Below the pieces are notes generated by a model. That model made no database searches. It had not been told where the DNA came from and saw only the letters and a list, made by a program, of their open reading frames with translations. A DNA stretch of 64,000 bases from positions 83,984-147,983 of the forward strand of contig JBAQNH010000002.1 in NCBI GenBank assembly GCA_049303575.1. Reading direction: 5' to 3'. Both the position numbers and the translations under genes were made by a program. This document shows, one piece after another, positions 50,131-61,935 of the stretch (the stretch's first letter is position 1; every line of letters starts with the position of its first letter). The DNA is from Microgenomates group bacterium. GTDB taxonomy: Bacteria > Patescibacteriota > Microgenomatia > UBA1400 > MFAQ01.

Positions 50131-50823
50131 TCAATTTATTCTCCTCCATGTTAAATGCTCGTATATGCTAGACCAAATAAAACCAAAGCTTAATGCAAAC
50201 AGAAGTTCTTCTGGCGGGATGCCAAGGATCAAAACTCCAGAAATAGCTTTTAAATTCCAAACTTTTTCCACATAACCCGGATATACAGCAATAAGTGTAA
50301 TGAAATATATAAAATATATTCCTAAAAATATTATCGCGCTTGTGATCATTTTTTTCATTAAATCGGGACGACAATACCACGAAAATAGTCCACCTCCTGT
50401 CATTGATATCACGGCAATGTAAATGGGATTAATGGAAGTTGTCATAAGAAGCAAGAAAAAAATAATCGGGGCGGAAAACAAAGCTATTAAATGATTGCGA
50501 TGTCGTCGTGAGTGTCGTTCGTGATAATTAATTTTTTCGTGTTTTGTCTTAAAAATTAGTTCATAACTTATAACCGCAATTCCACCAATGCCAAAAGAAA
50601 AAATCAGGCTTTCAATATCAAATCCAGTTCGTAAGGCTAAATTAAAAAGAGAAGGAGGACTCCAATATTCCGGGACAAATAATGGTTCGGTAAGACCAAG
50701 AATAGATGTCCACAAGCTTACAACCAGCATTTCTCGTTTTTTGTCTTTAGTATTTAGGGAAAAATAAATCACCCCCCAAACCCCTATTAACATTAAGCTC
50801 CAAATGAGCCATACATATTGCAT
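50131..50823 (-). CDS. lycopene cyclase domain-containing membrane protein (CrtYcd-like), tentative
   Basis: Two-repeat polytopic protein. Each half carries a PxE(E) motif (LTEPLFVPEYW and LGIPPEELLFALSFG) as in lycopene cyclase domain proteins. Confidence 0.4.
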   Translation of the reverse strand: MQYVWLIWSLMLIGVWGVIYFSLNTKDKKREMLVVSLWTSILGLTEPLFVPEYWSPPSLFNLALRTGFDIESLIFSFGIGGIAVISYELIFKTKHEKINYHERHSRRHRNHLIALFSAPIIFFLLLMTTSINPIYIAVISMTGGGLFSWYCRPDLMKKMITSAIIFLGIYFIYFITLIAVYPGYVEKVWNLKAISGVLILGIPPEELLFALSFGFIWSSIYEHLTWRRIN

Positions 50824-50955
50824 AAAGTTTAACTATCTGCAAGTTAGTGTATGAAATTTTTATGACTTAGTCAAACAAAATTGGGGATTTAGCATTCACA
50901 AATAGGTTAGGTTAGTCAAAGGCAACATCTTGTGATTTCACAAAAGTGAAAAATA

Positions 50956-50985
50956 GCGGAGAGTGGAACGAAGTCCGAACCTTTA
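50956..50985. repeat. copy B of the roughly 30-nt imperfect direct repeat
   Basis: Core AAGTCCGAACCTTT at 50971..50984. The two copies flank the 50131..50823 gene. Confidence 0.6.
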
Positions 50986-51017
50986 TTAAACTATGATAAT
51001 TGTAAAATAGATTTTAT

Positions 51018-51614
51018 ATGCCAAAAGTAAATTATTTAGAAAGAGTTAAAGGATTAAGTGGCGCGATAAAAGTTTTGAAGGATAGTCTTAATAAGGTAAA
51101 GGGAGGAGACTCTGATTACTATATAACATTGGCAAGTGTGCTTAGATCGTTGGTAGCTGGTGGCAACAAAAACTTTAACCCACTATTAATTGATCTGGCA
51201 AAAATAAACAATTACTCTTTAAAATGTTTTGGTAGTGGAAGTATCTCATTAATCAGAGAGATTTTAGGTAATGAAACTGCTGAAAACAACCTAGTTTCCT
51301 TACACCCACAACACTTTATTACATTACAGCAATTTAGCCCCGCACAAGACGAATATTCACTTGACGAATGGTTAGAATCAGAAACGATGGCTTTATTTGG
51401 AAAAATTTATACACCAAACTACATTCTTAGAGCTGTTGCTGACACAGAAGCTAGTCACTATGATATTGAACAACCCCAAAAATATCTTAATTTAAAAAAA
51501 ATTATTTCTGAGACAGATATTGGACAACAAAACGATGTAATAAAATTTTTAATAGAGTTAGGAGACGTCGTCGTGTATTTTGGAGAAAAGCTAATAGAAA
51601 CGATCAGTAAATAG
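51018..51614 (+). CDS. hypothetical protein convergent with the trypsin-like protease gene
   Basis: 198 aa. No signal peptide and no recognisable motif. Confidence 0.4.
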   Translation: MPKVNYLERVKGLSGAIKVLKDSLNKVKGGDSDYYITLASVLRSLVAGGNKNFNPLLIDLAKINNYSLKCFGSGSISLIREILGNETAENNLVSLHPQHFITLQQFSPAQDEYSLDEWLESETMALFGKIYTPNYILRAVADTEASHYDIEQPQKYLNLKKIISETDIGQQNDVIKFLIELGDVVVYFGEKLIETISK

Positions 51615-51684
51615 CTGATTACATTAATCGAGGTTTATATACACTTACGAAGGATCTTGAATTGAGTTATAACCATTATTTAAA

Positions 51685-52560
51685 CTAGCCAATAATGTTA
51701 TGTTTTTTAAATATTTCGAGAAATGTTGGAGTTGCAAAGCCATAAGAATATGTCGCGTTTAGTGTCTCAATATAAGCTTTTTCCTTGTATTCTTTGTAGT
51801 TTCTAATTCTTTCAGGTTCGACAACGACCTCTCTAATATTGATTGGGTGAGAGTGCCAACCTTTAACGATTGAAATAAGTCTCCCAGTCTTTGCGTCAAA
51901 AATTGGCCCACCGCTATTGCCTGGATTGAAAGCGAGTGTAAACTCATAAAAAAAGTCTTTGTCAGAAGTGTGGTATCTACAATTTACTACTCCTAAATCA
52001 GTTCTGAGTTTTATATCACCAACTTTTGGTTTGTAAACGTCCTTATTATCAAATGATAACTCACAAAGTGGATATCCTAATAAACCTACTTCCGAACCAA
52101 TAGGTAAATAATCCTTAGAAATTCTAATAAAATCGTTTTTGTCGGCATACAAAGTATCGCCAACTTGATAGAAGTTATCTTTCAAATAGATTATTGCCAA
52201 ATCTACATCAGGATATACAAATAAATCTTTATTGATTTCTAGATCCATAAAACTCCAATGAATGTTATCCTCGTCGTCATGTTTTAGGAGATAGTATTTA
52301 TCCCCATCTTTATGTTGTTGAAATTCATTATTGATGACATGAGCAGCTGTTATAAAGCGATTAGGGGCTGCGGTGAACCCAGAACCTAATGTCAACCAAT
52401 TTGTTTCCTCCTGACCATTAACCATAACTTTTCTTCCTCTCACCACAAGATATACGGATTTTTTTATCAGTTTTACGCAATCAACAAATGAGTGAAATGA
52501 CTCAGGTCGCTTGGGACGTTTTAAACCTTTATATTTTTTCTTAGGCTTCTTTGTACTCAT
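51685..52560 (-). CDS. intracellular trypsin-like (chymotrypsin-fold, S1) serine protease
   Basis: Catalytic triad contexts TAAHVI (His), DLAIIYL (Asp) and NPGNSGGPIFD (GDSGGP-type Ser). Basic N-terminus with no signal peptide. Confidence 0.65.
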   Translation of the reverse strand: MSTKKPKKKYKGLKRPKRPESFHSFVDCVKLIKKSVYLVVRGRKVMVNGQEETNWLTLGSGFTAAPNRFITAAHVINNEFQQHKDGDKYYLLKHDDEDNIHWSFMDLEINKDLFVYPDVDLAIIYLKDNFYQVGDTLYADKNDFIRISKDYLPIGSEVGLLGYPLCELSFDNKDVYKPKVGDIKLRTDLGVVNCRYHTSDKDFFYEFTLAFNPGNSGGPIFDAKTGRLISIVKGWHSHPINIREVVVEPERIRNYKEYKEKAYIETLNATYSYGFATPTFLEIFKKHNIIG

Positions 52561-52733
52561 AACTTCATTGTTTCTAAATAATGTTTATAATTTTACTCTT
52601 TTGATAAGTAATAATTAGTGAGATTTGATATACAACCAATGACTTTTGTGTTTCCATAATACTGGTTACACTCTTAAACCGAGTTCCCCATCACTGCAAA
52701 GTCGTGATAATATGCTCTGTTGAGGGTAACCAG

Positions 52734-52817
52734 CGGAGACGGTGGGATTCGAACCCACGGGACTTTTTCAAGTCATGGTTTAGCGAACCATTGTCTTAAC
52801 CACTGGACTACGTCTCC
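52734..52817 (-). tRNA. tRNA-Ser (anticodon GCT), class II with a long variable arm
   Basis: Acceptor GGAGACG/CGTCTCC, anticodon stem ATGGT/ACCAT with loop TCGCTAA, variable hairpin GACTT..AAGTC, T-arm TGGG-TTCGAAT-CCCA, discriminator G. Coordinates +/-2. Confidence 0.8.
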
Positions 52818-52833
52818 TTAACTCAAAATTATA

Positions 52834-53838
52834 TCATCGTAACTTGGAAATTAGCCTGTAGTTTGAACTCCCAACTACCTTGAAATATCGGATAATCTCA
52901 TCCTTTTTATATAGCCACACTTTATTATTGGACTGATACTTTGGAGAAAAACCTAAAGTAGTTAGTGTTTCGAAGACAAATGTTAATAACGGAGTTGATA
53001 CGTTTGTGAAGTTTATGGTTAGGTACGAGTATTGTTTTCCGTTTATTGTGTATTTATGTTCAAATAGTCCTCCGTCTGTATCAATAAGCCCTCTAAGACA
53101 CATTGTTGAATAATTGATGTCTCCTGTTATCCACTTTGGAACCGTTATTTGAATTTTTGATTTGTTTCCAAAGGAAATACCATTTTTATTCAAGAACTTA
53201 ACGAGATTAACACCGCTATACTTTAACGAAATTGCATTGGCTTTCTTGTATTTATATAGAGATGGGGAATATTTAAATAATTTTTCTGATAGATCCTTGA
53301 CATACTCCATATATTTATTGTCTAAAATTGAATTAAGGGTGATGGTCAGTTGATATTTTGTTAGTCCTCCATCACCTAAAACAATTCCAAACAACTCGGC
53401 TAATTGTTTTGATTCGTTTGGAAAATTAAAAATATTGGGTACATTGCAACCAATTGAACGATAATAATCTGGATTTTCTTTCCTGTTTTTCTGGGACATT
53501 TCTCCTCCTTTTTTTCGCCCAGATTCATTTCCAGGTGGTCCATATAGTTTATTCCTCTTTAGTGTACCAATAGGTCCATTGATTCTTCCACTCCACCATT
53601 CTTCTCTTTCTTCCAATATTGGTGGAAGGGTAATGCCAGAAATTTTGCTAATTTTTTTCATTGCGTCTCTACTTCCTAAAGTCTTTTCGCTAATCCAATA
53701 CCTGAAGCTTCTTCCTGAGATACCAACAAATTTTGATAGACCATCCGAGTTTAGAGTAAGGATAGCCATAACCTTTTTCAAGTATTTGTTTTGTTCTCCT
53801 CGTTTAAATACCAATCTTGTCATAGCTAATCCTAACAA
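52834..53838 (-). CDS. free-standing double-motif LAGLIDADG homing endonuclease with an N-terminal HTH-like region
   Basis: Two LAGLIDADG motifs, LFGIVLGDGGL and LRGLIDTDGGL. Lies 16 nt upstream of tRNA-Ser(GCT) on the same strand. Confidence 0.75.
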   Translation of the reverse strand: MLGLAMTRLVFKRGEQNKYLKKVMAILTLNSDGLSKFVGISGRSFRYWISEKTLGSRDAMKKISKISGITLPPILEEREEWWSGRINGPIGTLKRNKLYGPPGNESGRKKGGEMSQKNRKENPDYYRSIGCNVPNIFNFPNESKQLAELFGIVLGDGGLTKYQLTITLNSILDNKYMEYVKDLSEKLFKYSPSLYKYKKANAISLKYSGVNLVKFLNKNGISFGNKSKIQITVPKWITGDINYSTMCLRGLIDTDGGLFEHKYTINGKQYSYLTINFTNVSTPLLTFVFETLTTLGFSPKYQSNNKVWLYKKDEIIRYFKVVGSSNYRLISKLR

Positions 53839-53879
53839 AACCCGAAATGAATGTCAAAATACGTATATAAACACATCTG

Positions 53880-53895
53880 AATGATAAAATATACA
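53880..53895 (+). promoter_or_regulatory. putative extended -10 promoter (TGATAAAAT) for tRNA-Ser(TGA) and the following tRNA
   Basis: TGnTAAAAT is about 10 nt upstream of the mature 5' end. The same motif recurs before three other tRNA genes. Confidence 0.5.
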
Positions 53896-53900
53896 GGTTC

Positions 53901-53982
53901 GGAGAGTGGGCAGGACGGTAATGCGTTGGTCTTGAAAACCAATGAGCGCAAGCTCTAACAGGTTCGACCCCTGTACTCTCCG
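53901..53982 (+). tRNA. tRNA-Ser (anticodon TGA), class II
   Basis: Acceptor GGAGAGT/ACTCTCC, anticodon stem TTGGT/ACCAA with loop CTTGAAA, variable hairpin GAGC-GCAA-GCTC, T-arm CAGG-TTCGACC-CCTG, discriminator G. Preceded by TAAAAT. Confidence 0.8.
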
Positions 53983-53987
53983 CCTCA

Positions 53988-54072
53988 GGAGGGGTCGCAT
54001 AGTGGTCGAGTGCTCCGGTTTACTAAACCGGCGTATCGCAAGATACCGCGGGTTCGAATCCCGCCCCCTCCG
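53988..54072 (+). tRNA. class II (Ser-type) tRNA with an apparent anticodon ACT (unusual A34); possibly a tRNA-Ser variant or pseudogene
   Basis: Acceptor GGAGGGG/CCCCTCC, 3-bp D-stem GCA/TGC as in tRNA-Ser, anticodon stem CCGGT/ACCGG with loop TTACTAA, variable hairpin GTATC-GCAA-GATAC, T-arm GCGGG-TTCGAAT-CCCGC, discriminator G. Confidence 0.55.
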
Positions 54073-54094
54073 CATTTAAATAGTTACACAACTA

Positions 54095-54487
54095 TTATCT
54101 AATGTCTGGGTTTTTGCAATATTCTGTCTCAATCATTAGTGACTCATCCGTAAATCGTATCGCTATCCTTTCCTGTCTCAACTCGACAGCCAAGTTTCCA
54201 ATGAACTCTATAAATCTTTCTTTAAATCGATCTTTTTCCTCTGGAAATCTGGGGTAGACTGAGGACTCAATCAAAATAGCTGGCTCGCTATACTCATTTT
54301 TACCGGAAACCACTATCCCGCTTGGAGTCAAAGTACCAGAAAAGGTAAAATCGTTAACTTTTGAAGCTGATATTTTTATTGCTTTTTTTACTTCGTCTAA
54401 AGAGAAAGTTTTGTTTGAGTAACCCACCTTCAAACCCAAAATAACCCTTGCCTCAAAAGTCTCAATGTTTAAGCCAGTTTTATACAT
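54095..54487 (-). CDS. hypothetical protein
   Basis: ORF of 130 aa. No motif. Confidence 0.4.
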   Translation of the reverse strand: MYKTGLNIETFEARVILGLKVGYSNKTFSLDEVKKAIKISASKVNDFTFSGTLTPSGIVVSGKNEYSEPAILIESSVYPRFPEEKDRFKERFIEFIGNLAVELRQERIAIRFTDESLMIETEYCKNPDIR

Positions 54488-55996: not shown

Positions 55997-56070
55997 GCGC
56001 TCGTAGCTCAGTTGGATAGAGCACTAGGTTGCGGACCTAGGGGTCGCAGGTTCAAATCCTGCCGGGCGCA
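55997..56070 (+). tRNA. tRNA-Arg (anticodon GCG)
   Basis: Acceptor GCGCTCG/CGGGCGC (one T-G wobble), D-stem GCTC/GAGC, anticodon stem CTAGG/CCTAG with loop TTGCGGA, T-arm GCAGG-TTCAAAT-CCTGC, discriminator A. Preceded by TGGTAAAAT. Confidence 0.7.
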
Positions 56071-56076
56071 CTTTTG

Positions 56077-56207: not shown

Positions 56208-56282
56208 GTACCTGTAGCTCAGTTGGATTAGAGCGTTCCCCTCCGAAGGGAAAGGTCGTGCGTTCGAATCGCACCAGGTGCA
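56208..56282 (+). tRNA. tRNA-Arg (anticodon CCG)
   Basis: Acceptor GTACCTG/CAGGTGC (T-G wobble), D-stem GCTC/GAGC, anticodon stem TTCCC/GGGAA with loop CTCCGAA, T-arm GTGCG-TTCGAAT-CGCAC, discriminator A. Preceded by GATAAAAT. Confidence 0.75.
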
Positions 56283-56306
56283 CAAATTTATCTGCTATCA
56301 TAGGCC

Positions 56307-60019: not shown

Positions 60020-61561
60020 ATGGAATACTACGACCTTGATGTCACAAAACTAAAGTATGTCCTCTACCTTCGCAAGTCCACCGACGACGCTCAAAGGCAA
60101 GTCAGGTCTATTGGCGACCAAGAGGCAGAATGCTTTGACCTCCAAAGACGGCTCGGACTAAATATCGTCAAAACCATAAAGGAAACAAAGTCGGCAAAGT
60201 CCCCTAACAAGCGTCCACAATTCCGAGAAATGCTTGATGGAATAAAAATGGGCAAGTATGACGCCATTCTTGCTTGGAACCCCGATAGGTTGGCAAGAAA
60301 TATGCTTGAGGGTGGAGAAATAATTTATTTGGTGGACGAAAACATTATCAAAGACCTAAAGTTCGTTACTCACCCATTCACACCCGACCCAAACGGCAAA
60401 ATGCTTCTCGGGTTGGCTTTTGTCCTCTCCAAGCAATACTCGGATGACCTCTCTCAAAAGATTTCCCGAGGAGTAAAAAGAAGCTTCAGTGAAGGCAAGA
60501 TTGGCACCTACAAACATGGTTACAAGCGTGATGATGAAGGGTTCCAAGTTCCCGACGGAAAGAAGTTTGAGCTCATTAAGGAGGCTTGGGAGCTTAGAGC
60601 CGAAGGTCGTTCCCTTGAAGAAATAGCCTCCATCATAAACGACAAGGGATATGAGAGAAAAATAAAAAGAACGGGAGTAATTATGAAGGCAGACGCCAAA
60701 CTATTGAGTAAGCTTTTCCGAGACCCATTTTATTTTGGAACTTTGATACAAGCGGGTCAAACAATAAACCTTCTCCAATTTGGCTTTATTCCTGCCACCA
60801 CAAAAGAAGTTTACGAACATATCCAGTTGCTCTCATCAAACCGACTCCGACCATTCAATGTCAGGCGAATGACATTCTTCCCTCTTAAGGCAATACTGAG
60901 GTGTTCATTTTGCGGAAAGAATATGGTGGTGGCTCCATCAACAAGCCGAGGAGGAGGAAAGCTTTTGTATTGTCGTTGCGATACCAAAGGATGTCCGAGG
61001 ATAAAGAAATCGCTCCGAATGAAGTTTGTCTTTGATTTTATCTACGACTTTTTGGATAACAATCTAAAAATCACCGAGAAGGAATACCAAAAATATCTTG
61101 ATGAAACCGACGCTCTCAATGTAGAAGCGACAAGTAATACCTACCTTCAAATCCATACTCTTGAGGGACAGGTAAAAGCTATCACCCAAGAAATCAAGGA
61201 AAGCTCACTTGGTCTCGTCAAAATAAACTCCAAATCTCCAGCCTTCAATATAGTAAACGATAGGATTTCAAGCCTAGACAATGAAAAGTCAGGCTTGGAA
61301 GAGAAACTACGAGACCTCAGGAGCACTCTAAAAAGCCCCGAGAGTCAGAGGTTGGGTATGGATGAGTTCTTGAACCTGTGTAAAAATGCGGGTGCTATCG
61401 CAAGAAGTGCCACCGAAGTTCAAAAAGATACAATTTGCCGATATGTTTTCTTGAACCTATCTGTGGATGAGGAAAAAGTAGTGGCATATCAACTAAAAGA
61501 GCCGTTCAACACATTGGTCAAACGGCTCTTTATCCAAGAAGGTGGAGACGGAGGGAATTGA
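60020..61561 (+). mobile_element. large serine recombinase (serine integrase) CDS
   Basis: Resolvase-type catalytic N-terminus (VLYLRKSTDDAQRQ, nucleophilic Ser), recombinase domain, zinc-ribbon (CSFCGKN..CRC) and coiled-coil. The 3' end overlaps the tmRNA 3' end. Confidence 0.85.
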
Positions 61562-61935
61562 ACCCTCGTCTGAAATAATAAATCTACAATTTCTACAAGC
61601 TTAGTTTGCCGTTTTTCCATAAAGCTTCAGGCAAACAAGAACACTTTATGGTCGACTTAGAATAAGTTAGTCTCCAAGCCTAAATCACGCCTTGAAGCAT
61701 TCAATCCGGTGTTTTTTCGCCTTAAAGGTACCCCGGGATCCGATATTCTCTAGAGCGTCTCGAACTCGAGTTTAGGCAAAAGCGTAAACGGGAGCGAAAG
61801 ATTTGGCTTCACTTGAGGTGAAACCAAGTAACTTGTCTTCTTTATTGACAGTTGTATTTTGGTCTTTTTTACTCCTTTTACCAAAGGAGGCTTGCAGTTG
61901 TAAACGTACTAGTCCATCGATTCCGGTCGTCCCCA
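61541..61935 (-). ncRNA. ssrA: tmRNA (ssrA), about 395 nt
   Basis: 5' GGGGACGACCGGAATCGATGG matches the tmRNA 5' consensus (GGGGnuGAuucuGGAUUCGAcGG). Acceptor GGGGACG pairs with 3' CGTCTCC, giving a G3:U wobble, with discriminator A plus CC. T-arm GAGGG-TTCAATT-CCCTC. Candidate tag ORF GCC..TAA encodes AKSFAPVYAFA. smpB lies immediately upstream. Confidence 0.75.

Follow-up and report, generated by a model that had tools for sequence, protein, structure and literature searches.

The window, a 64,000-nucleotide stretch of contig JBAQNH010000002.1 from a Microgenomates group bacterium, contains a LAGLIDADG endonuclease gene directly upstream of a tRNA-Ser gene. As predicted from its sequence, this is an intact, stand-alone gene for a two-domain LAGLIDADG enzyme. 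It belongs to a large family of LAGLIDADG proteins linked to tRNA-Ser that is apparently undescribed, and the tRNA-Ser context is a defining property of this family and not a local accident. We suggest that the family is probably a selfish lineage of free-standing homing endonucleases specialized for the 5' flank of tRNA-Ser genes.

Distribution of the family and its placement before tRNA-Ser genes

A protein search with the window protein returned 192 relatives, nearly all of about 330 amino acids (aa). In a full scan of 1.84 billion representative proteins, the family comprised 312 clusters (50% identity) at E ≤ 1e-30. Searching a single genome from each of 185,579 species, incomplete metagenome-assembled genomes included, with one peptide pattern yielded 482 loci. 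The original prediction had regarded the gene as an unusual, isolated copy; it is instead one member of a 312-cluster family in which this placement is the rule. By label, the hosts belong to the Candidate Phyla Radiation (CPR)/Patescibacteria, Omnitrophota, Planctomycetota, Nitrospirota, and a few other groups. The family looks rare and sparse across species, and its copy number varies, with two copies in three genomes of the set. Full-text searches of the literature found no description of this endonuclease family.

The counts of loci given below refer to the best 80 of the 482 loci, which were fetched and inspected (loci are labeled L and proteins P). In 73 of them, the open reading frame (ORF) was followed first by a tRNA-Ser gene in the same orientation. 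In these 73 loci, the tRNA started between -131 and +38 nucleotides (nt) from the end of the stop codon (median +5), and in about 27 the stop codon was inside the tRNA gene. The partner isoacceptor was GCU in 34 loci, CGA in 16, GGA in 10, UGA in 7, and ACU in 6. Among the seven exceptions, three were at contig ends and one (L058) had a convergent tRNA-Ser. Those truly without a downstream tRNA were L052, L056, and L017 (a 1.2-kb contig), and L052 and L056 were still in tRNA-Ser clusters. The same placement was seen in loci found by other routes (L081, L085-L087, L090, and L092). A genome holds four or five tRNA-Ser genes among hundreds to thousands of genes, and thus the chance of finding tRNA-Ser as a random downstream neighbor is below 1%. 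The protein clades in a neighbor-joining tree tracked the tRNA-Ser isoacceptor and the host group.

The left flanks of the ORF vary. In many CPR genomes, including that of the window, the left neighbor is a divergent tRNA-Ser gene. In Omnitrophota, it is the 3' end of tRNA-Ser(UGA); in Planctomycetota and also in Omnitrophota, it is the stop codon of a tadA-like deaminase gene; and in Nitrospirales, it is serS. Since tRNA-Ser on the right is the only constant flank, the enzyme would be expected to recognize a site that takes in the promoter or the 5' part of tRNA-Ser. At the family loci, a bare ORF fills the intergenic spacer between complete conserved genes, and the remaining spacers are tiny (0-36 nt) on both the left side (tadA, tRNA, or serS) and the right side (tRNA-Ser). 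The ORF reads on to the first stop in the tRNA promoter or the tRNA body and therefore has no 3' sequence of its own. One endonuclease-linked tRNA-Ser(GCU), at L011:4975-5060, was matched by the Rfam tRNA-Sec model (49.1 bits, threshold 47) while having the anticodon GCU, which probably reflects unusual arm lengths.

We considered a phage origin and rejected it, because none of 50,697 phage records matched the family and IMG/VR gave a single close relative (38% identity, beside tRNA-Ser(GGA)); plasmids lay outside this search. Membership in a defence system was also rejected, because PADLOC reported only a generic 'HEase' similarity and the flanks consist of housekeeping genes. No integrase or transposase recurred in the flanks of the 80 loci. 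A XerC/D-like recombinase family was present in 6 of them, with no fixed position.

The window gene and its protein

The six-frame ORF list starts the window gene at a TTG at 53838, which gives 334 aa (52834..53838, minus strand), as in the original prediction. The downstream ATG at 53823 gives 329 aa and is backed by the family alignment, in which the start M-[ST]-R-L-V-F is conserved, and by the NCBI protein P0001, a 329-aa "hypothetical protein" of a Microgenomates group bacterium that is 100% identical to the window protein. Apart from the start codon, the earlier description of a double-motif LAGLIDADG ORF with a helix-turn-helix (HTH)-like N terminus holds, since the motifs, Pfam, and AlphaFold2 agree. 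The 64-kb window contains a single copy of the family.

An AlphaFold2 model built on 40 homologs had a mean predicted local distance difference test (pLDDT) score of 90 and showed a tandem alpha-beta-beta-alpha-beta-beta-alpha fold. Foldseek found 128 matches in the PDB at E ≤ 0.001, the best of which was I-Tsp061I (2dch, E 4.6e-11, template modeling score 0.74 on the target). Other top matches were intein endonuclease domains and I-DmoI, and all 50 of the 50 listed matches were LAGLIDADG or intein endonucleases. Sequence search of the PDB gave two-domain LAGLIDADG enzymes of the I-Tsp061I type as the only significant match. The Pfam profile LAGLIDADG_3 matched residues 244-320 of the window protein with 26.7 bits (cutoff 22.5), and it was matched by 39 of 40 family members. 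N-terminal to the LAGLIDADG core are about 130-140 aa that comprise an HTH, modeled with four helices (15-27, 31-38, 42-49, and 57-67), and a basic linker in which W82, R108, G111, and G112 are invariant or nearly so in the family alignment. Pfam HTH_3 was matched by 12 of the 40 homologs, and HTH_19, HTH_17, and Xre-like-HTH were also among their profile matches.

The window protein has both catalytic aspartates, D156 (LGD156GG) and D255 (DTD255GG), which are invariant in the family alignment, and the full-length ORF keeps every invariant residue of the family. The two catalytic positions are acidic in 261 of 262 family proteins, the sole exception being P0158 with lysine at both (K/K). Therefore, the window gene is not a pseudogene, a case that the original prediction had left to be decided by these residues.

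No group I or group II intron was found by Rfam in 52400-54300, at the gathering threshold or at E ≤ 1, and likewise no intron model matched in 16 related loci; the Rfam matches in these searches were tRNAs and tmRNA only. Pfam found no Hint or intein domain in the window protein. The flanking tRNAs are complete (48-57 bits, Rfam). For these reasons, we regard the gene as free-standing, which bears out the original prediction that it stands alone. It could be argued that the enzyme is nonetheless encoded by an ordinary intron or intein and that the intron, or the split gene hosting it, was missed, since LAGLIDADG enzymes of the CPR are known mainly from rRNA insertions (PMC11270868) and, among solved structures, enzymes from introns and inteins come closest. 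However, besides the negative searches and the complete tRNAs, the window gene has its own ATG behind a promoter, and elsewhere the ORF fills spacers between complete genes. We consider such an origin very improbable.

Occupied and empty junctions

The same junctions between conserved genes are found with and without the ORF. The junction of tadA and tRNA-Ser(GCU) is empty in L021, L041, and L075, with spacers of 6-36 nt, and filled in L026, L031, L051, L057, and L077, where the ATG is 0-20 nt past the tadA stop codon or overlaps it. The genomes in which this junction is empty carry the gene between tRNA-Ser(UGA) and tRNA-Ser(CGA) instead, while L051 has the UGA-CGA junction empty. The spacer between the divergent UGA(-) and GCU(+) genes (strands given relative to the ORF) is filled in the window and empty in L067 and L078. 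Within the fetched loci, 84 tRNA-Ser genes are without an ORF. We also tried to define an insertion point, TTGAC/TGnTATAAT, by joining the flanks of the window gene and comparing them with the empty spacer of L067. Other empty sites give this point no support, and we treat it as a lead.

A second ORF family (153-232 aa), unrelated to the first, was found at L091:2527-3150, L057:1497-2195, and L002:74-535. These ORFs end inside a tRNA gene or at most 27 nt from it, the tRNA being Ser-GCU in L091, Ser-CGA in L057, and Ile in L002. In L057, the ORF fills the UGA-CGA spacer. In L091, it separates the K/K endonuclease variant from tRNA-Ser, and its stop codon is in the tRNA. The two longer members have an N-terminal HTH, the only part that Pfam and PHROGs recognize, and all three have the motif LYWCEGS/LFWCEGT/LYWGEGG. 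Going by this motif alone, the proteins may be LAGLIDADG-like. The presence of a second ORF family at such spots suggests that more than one family competes for the niche 5' of tRNA-Ser.

Promoters and tRNA genes at the window locus

The features of the window locus are listed in Table 1. The original prediction had the ORF ending 16 nt before a same-strand tRNA-Ser(GCU), which ARAGORN and Rfam confirm, and starting about 60 nt from tRNA-Ser(UGA), which agrees with the 62 nt measured from the TTG; the conserved ATG is 77 nt away. Its suggestion that the endonuclease may target a tRNA-associated site also fits the linkage to tRNA-Ser throughout the family. The layout with a divergent tRNA-Ser(UGA) is shared by L001, L085 (part), L086, L087, L012, L047, and L063.

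Table 1. Coordinates of the endonuclease gene, its domains, and the adjacent tRNA genes and promoter-like sites in the window
Feature	Position	Strand	Remarks
Endonuclease gene	52834..53823	-	329 aa from ATG at 53823; stop TGA 52834-52836
N-terminal XRE-type helix-turn-helix	53605..53817	-	residues ~8-78 (334-aa numbering); W48 invariant
Basic helical linker REEWWSGRxNG...GRxKGGxxSQ...NPxYY	53419..53604	-	from alignment; helices 88-99, 105-121, 123-128
LAGLIDADG domain 1	53125..53418	-	motif LFGIVLGDGGL 53362-53394; catalytic D156
LAGLIDADG domain 2	52837..53124	-	motif LRGLIDTDGGL 53065-53097; catalytic D255
tRNA-Ser(GCU)	52733-52817	-	16 nt past endonuclease stop, same strand; ARAGORN and Rfam
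tRNA-Ser(UGA)	53901-53984	+	divergent; 62 nt from TTG, 77 nt from ATG; ARAGORN and Rfam
tRNA-Ser(ACU)	53988-54073	+	3 nt past tRNA-Ser(UGA); ARAGORN and Rfam
Endonuclease promoter-like site	53829..53857	-	TTGACA-17 nt-TAGGAT, TG before -10 (sequence pattern)
Extended -10 of tRNA-Ser(GCU), TGATATAAT	52828..52836	-	ends 10 nt before tRNA 5' end

The ATG of the endonuclease gene is about 6 nt past the -10 box of its promoter-like site, and thus the mRNA is probably leaderless or nearly so. The promoter module TTGAC...TTCGGGTTT..TAG(G/T)ATTA is kept in L085, L086, L087, and L001, although the proteins are only 60-67% identical, and the same module precedes the L067 copy, which is at a different junction.

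At the other end of the gene, the stop codon TGA forms the first three bases of TGATATAAT. We considered whether this box is part of an inserted element and rejected the idea, because boxes of the form TGnTAwAAT at -18 to -22 also precede endonuclease-free tRNA genes in related genomes. Therefore, TGATATAAT is the tRNA's own promoter. More generally, in CPR loci the TGnTAwAAT boxes are located 18 to 22 nt before tRNA genes that are first in their operon, with no recognizable -35 box; an example in the window is at 53880-53900, upstream of tRNA-Ser(UGA) at 53901. Given this fixed short distance from box to tRNA, the leaders of these tRNAs should be just a few nucleotides long.

The five tRNA-Ser genes of the window have a pairwise identity of only 59-72% and are thus not recent duplicates, which gives no support to the earlier suggestion that the endonuclease explains a local tRNA duplication. 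The companion suggestion of an endonuclease-driven rearrangement was not supported either: an inversion relative to related loci exists, and nothing ties the endonuclease to it.

tRNA-Ser(ACU), with the loop TTACTAA, is a fifth serine tRNA besides GCU and forms an orthologous group of its own. An unmodified A34 tRNA-Ser is unusual for bacteria. The window copy is 90% identical to the L001 copy compared with 59-72% to the other tRNA-Ser genes of the window. It is an old isoacceptor that is conserved separately. It is also present in L001, L006, L007, L009, L010, L044, L056, L067, L078, L080, L086, and L087. In every fetched locus that has it, it adjoins the endonuclease gene, the loci having been chosen for that gene. 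Sub-threshold Rfam matches to 'Plastid-psbl-rps4' at 52734-52783 (plus strand) and 54023-54072 (minus strand) are antisense to two tRNA-Ser genes and are almost certainly artefacts of tRNA-like sequence.

Possible conversion, constraint and decay

Signs of mobility also come from Omnitrophota, where genomes with SerRS proteins of 86-89% identity have endonucleases of only 46-53% identity, and the two trees disagree. Some endonuclease genes are mosaic. L072 and L025 have identities of 75, 78, and 53% across the thirds of the gene, and their adjacent tRNA-Ser(UGA) genes are 87% identical, alongside the 75-78% N-terminal parts. L054 and L038 have 47, 42, and 70%, and their downstream tRNA-Ser(CGA) genes are 95% identical, alongside the 70% C-terminal third. 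Such pairing of endonuclease segments with the alleles of neighboring tRNAs would be consistent with co-conversion. The flanking tRNAs of L060 (92% identical) are not counted as evidence of endonuclease-driven conversion, because several loci have UGA/CGA pairs of 80-89% identity wherever these lie. In a distant pair of Nitrospirales, the synonymous divergence of the endonuclease was 0.8-0.9 while that of three flanking genes was at least 2 or saturated. We did not retain this as proof of transfer, because it holds for the distant pair only and close pairs are within the range of the flanking genes, so that the support is weak.

Several observations weigh against a mobile, selfish lineage. In Nitrospirales, the endonuclease is as conserved as SerRS (0.73 compared with 0.74), the endonuclease tree matches the SerRS tree, and dN/dS is 0.10-0.25, by pairwise Nei-Gojobori estimates that are saturated for distant pairs. 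Such persistence is more than the classic cycle of invasion, decay, and loss predicts. In the clade of the window copy, the layout ACU(-), UGA(-), ORF, GCU(+), in the orientation of the ORF, is kept. Between ORF and tRNA-Ser(GCU) there are 16 nt, without variation, in L085-L087 and 10 nt in L001. The identity of the protein between relatives is 62-67%, compared with 70% for SmpB, 54% for a ComF-like protein, and 50% for a HAD protein. Two copies in the same genome belong to separate old clades (GGA and ACU) that diverge in parallel. Moreover, the first 15 nt of the tRNA are the same in L057, which is occupied, as in L021 and L041, which are empty, and this leaves the self-immunity of the occupied allele unexplained. 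We found no two near-identical genomes that differ in the insert alone. A metagenome scan with a 44-mer of Nitrospira tRNA-Ser(UGA) gave three matches, none of them an empty allele: L088 and L028 are the same contig, L090 carries the ORF, and the sequence of L089 does not extend upstream. Finally, the trees are neighbor-joining only, from identity or BLOSUM distances, and the taxonomic labels, taken from metagenome-assembled-genome records, are unreliable, several of them being probably wrong.

The original prediction proposed that the gene is either mobile or domesticated. Mobility is indicated at the level of the family, while the copy of the window clade, syntenic and conserved like its neighbors, looks like a stable, vertically inherited, constrained resident.

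Domestication would make the protein a host factor comparable to WhiA or HO, that is, a locus-specific DNA-binding protein or nuclease useful at tRNA-Ser, either for regulating tRNA-Ser transcription or for gene conversion, amplification, or replacement of tRNA-Ser alleles. It would account for the purifying selection and SerRS-like identity in Nitrospirales, the conserved synteny of the window clade, and the isoacceptor-specific clades that diverge in parallel within genomes. The fused HTH and the conserved promoter- or operator-like element TTCGGGTTT..TAGGATTA, the promoter of tRNA-Ser in the 3' end of the endonuclease gene, and the linkage of the gene to serS, tadA, and tRNA-Ser would also fit, and there is a precedent in phage SegB, which amplifies tRNA loci (PMC13096335). 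However, the catalytic aspartates are retained in nearly all family proteins, unlike those of WhiA, and the scan of 185,579 species found just 482 loci. Even within the same genomes, the majority of tRNA-Ser genes have no ORF, junctions are empty or filled depending on the genome, and copy number varies. In addition, decayed copies exist, and the Omnitrophota alleles are incongruent and mosaic. We consider domestication unlikely, and we retain it as a serious alternative because of the long vertical persistence under constraint.

More doubtful than domestication in general is its specific form of a host-kept nuclease, in which breaks at tRNA-Ser would drive conversion, replacement, amplification, or anticodon diversification of tRNA-Ser alleles. 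The extra tRNA-Ser(ACU) beside the gene in Microgenomates may be an outcome of such activity. This nuclease would be the chromosomal counterpart of the tRNA-locus amplification by phage SegB that escapes tRNA-cleaving toxins.

Decay is seen within the family. There are in-frame stop codons in L001, L059, L060, and L078, N-terminally truncated forms recur, and one variant is the K/K protein. L001, with its in-frame stop, is the closest relative of the window copy in the genome collection. These decayed relatives, the fusion of the stop codon to the -10 box of the tRNA, and the low GC content of the gene (33.7% compared with 41.1% for the window) might suggest that the window gene is itself an inactive, decaying relic, tolerated and kept only because the promoter of an essential tRNA lies partly in its 3' end. 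However, that overlap would guard only the last ~30 nt and not 329 codons. The ORF is full length with all invariant family residues, its relatives at 62-67% identity are intact and have the same layout, and dN/dS in the family is well below 1 where measured. A relic is therefore quite improbable, if less so than an overlooked intron or intein.

Proposed mode of homing

For the free-standing homing endonuclease that we favor, the following cycle is proposed. In the window clade, the ORF would be expressed from its own promoter, which is recognized as a sequence pattern, and in other phyla it would be read through from the upstream tRNA, tadA, or serS. The protein would bind an insert-free tRNA-Ser gene at a long asymmetric site that takes in its promoter or 5' part and make a double-strand break, as suggested by its fold, its intact catalytic residues, and its position. 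An occupied allele would then serve as the repair template, and the ~1-kb ORF would be copied into the spacer, frequently accompanied by a portion of the neighboring tRNA allele, in keeping with the occupied and empty junctions and the mosaic alleles. Since the insert would replace the upstream half of the site, the occupied allele would no longer be cut. The cost to the host would be little, because the ORF stops in the -10 box of the tRNA or just inside the tRNA and leaves the tRNA intact. The ORF might spread through break repair following DNA uptake, and switching among paralogous tRNA-Ser genes may have given rise to the isoacceptor-specific clades.

Genomic surroundings

In the window, all five tRNA-Ser genes, two tRNA-Arg genes, tmRNA (61541-61934), and smpB are clustered in a span of about 10 kb. 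The tRNA-Arg genes at 55997-56071 and 56208-56283 have the anticodons GCG and CCG, as in all CPR loci seen, in place of the ACG that is usual in bacteria. The Omnitrophota and Planctomycetota loci have tRNA-Arg with ACG or GCG, together with a tadA-like gene. Their gene order is RtcB-like ligase, archease, serS, membrane protein, and tRNA-Ser array; the RtcB-serS order was seen in L025, L035, L038, L046, L054, L060, L071, L072, and L075, with archease in six of them. In Nitrospirales, the order is serS, endonuclease, and tRNA-Ser(UGA).

The endonuclease gene is part of a low-GC block at about 50200-53500 (32-36% compared with 41% for the window). The block also spans three ORFs (50131-50823, 51018-51614, and 51685-52560, the last with a serine-protease-like motif GNSGGP), which are located between tRNA-Ser(GCU) and a histidine kinase gene. 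The syntenic stretch of the closest relative, L085, holds different genes, and thus a variable islet seems to lie 3' of the tRNA.

Significance and comparison with known systems

Discussions of homing endonucleases usually treat them as elements carried by introns and inteins or, when free-standing, as genes of phages and organelles. The family described here is a large chromosomal one in several bacterial phyla, and it is spared the need for splicing by being a bare ORF just before an essential tRNA-Ser gene, whose promoter or body it uses to end its own reading frame. ORFs that seemingly run into tRNA genes at this position are real genes, which should be kept in mind during annotation. If the homing interpretation is correct, streamlined genomes, those of the CPR for example, would offer selfish DNA a new niche in the 5' flank of tRNA-Ser, and the patchwork of tRNA-Ser alleles in Omnitrophota would be explained. 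The family would also provide natural meganucleases with an HTH add-on, with targets that could be guessed from the empty junctions. If the genes are instead kept for a host function at tRNA-Ser loci, they would represent a new kind of tRNA gene maintenance system.

The window protein shares the monomeric two-domain fold and both catalytic motifs with I-Tsp061I, I-DmoI, PI-PfuI, and PI-SceI. Enzymes of the I-Tsp061I type are located within introns of archaeal rRNA genes or within inteins of protein genes, whereas the window gene is free-standing, 5' of a tRNA, and encodes an additional HTH and linker. The LAGLIDADG enzymes in rRNA insertions of the CPR (PMC11270868) are from the same host group and superfamily, and both they and the tRNA-Ser family are presumed to spread through homing that is specific for targets in conserved RNA genes. 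However, the former interrupt 16S and 23S rRNA genes, often in group I introns, while the tRNA-Ser family never interrupts an RNA gene. The main text of that report contains no word beginning with 'tRNA'. Patescibacteria also have group I introns in tRNA genes (PMC13011429), a further instance, within this phylum, of mobile elements at tRNA genes. These introns are in the anticodon loop of tRNA-Asn and tRNA-Asp and are mostly without an endonuclease, which is of the HNH type where present; that study reports no tRNA-Ser and no flanking LAGLIDADG genes.

WhiA and yeast HO likewise combine a LAGLIDADG core with an extra DNA-binding domain in a stand-alone chromosomal gene, and the Pfam model for the WhiA LAGLIDADG domain was weakly matched by 3 of 40 family members. 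In WhiA, the catalytic residues are lost, the HTH is C-terminal, and the distribution within its phyla is near-universal, whereas the tRNA-Ser family keeps the catalytic aspartates, has an N-terminal HTH, and appears to be sparsely distributed. T4 SegB (PMC2330249; PMC13096335) is likewise a bare endonuclease ORF in a spacer of a tRNA cluster. Intronless homing of the SegB kind would be expected to spread with co-conversion of flanking tRNA genes, and modular DNA-binding add-ons are typical of it. SegB is a GIY-YIG enzyme of a phage, while the family of the window gene consists of LAGLIDADG enzymes that are encoded on bacterial chromosomes and associated with serine tRNAs only.

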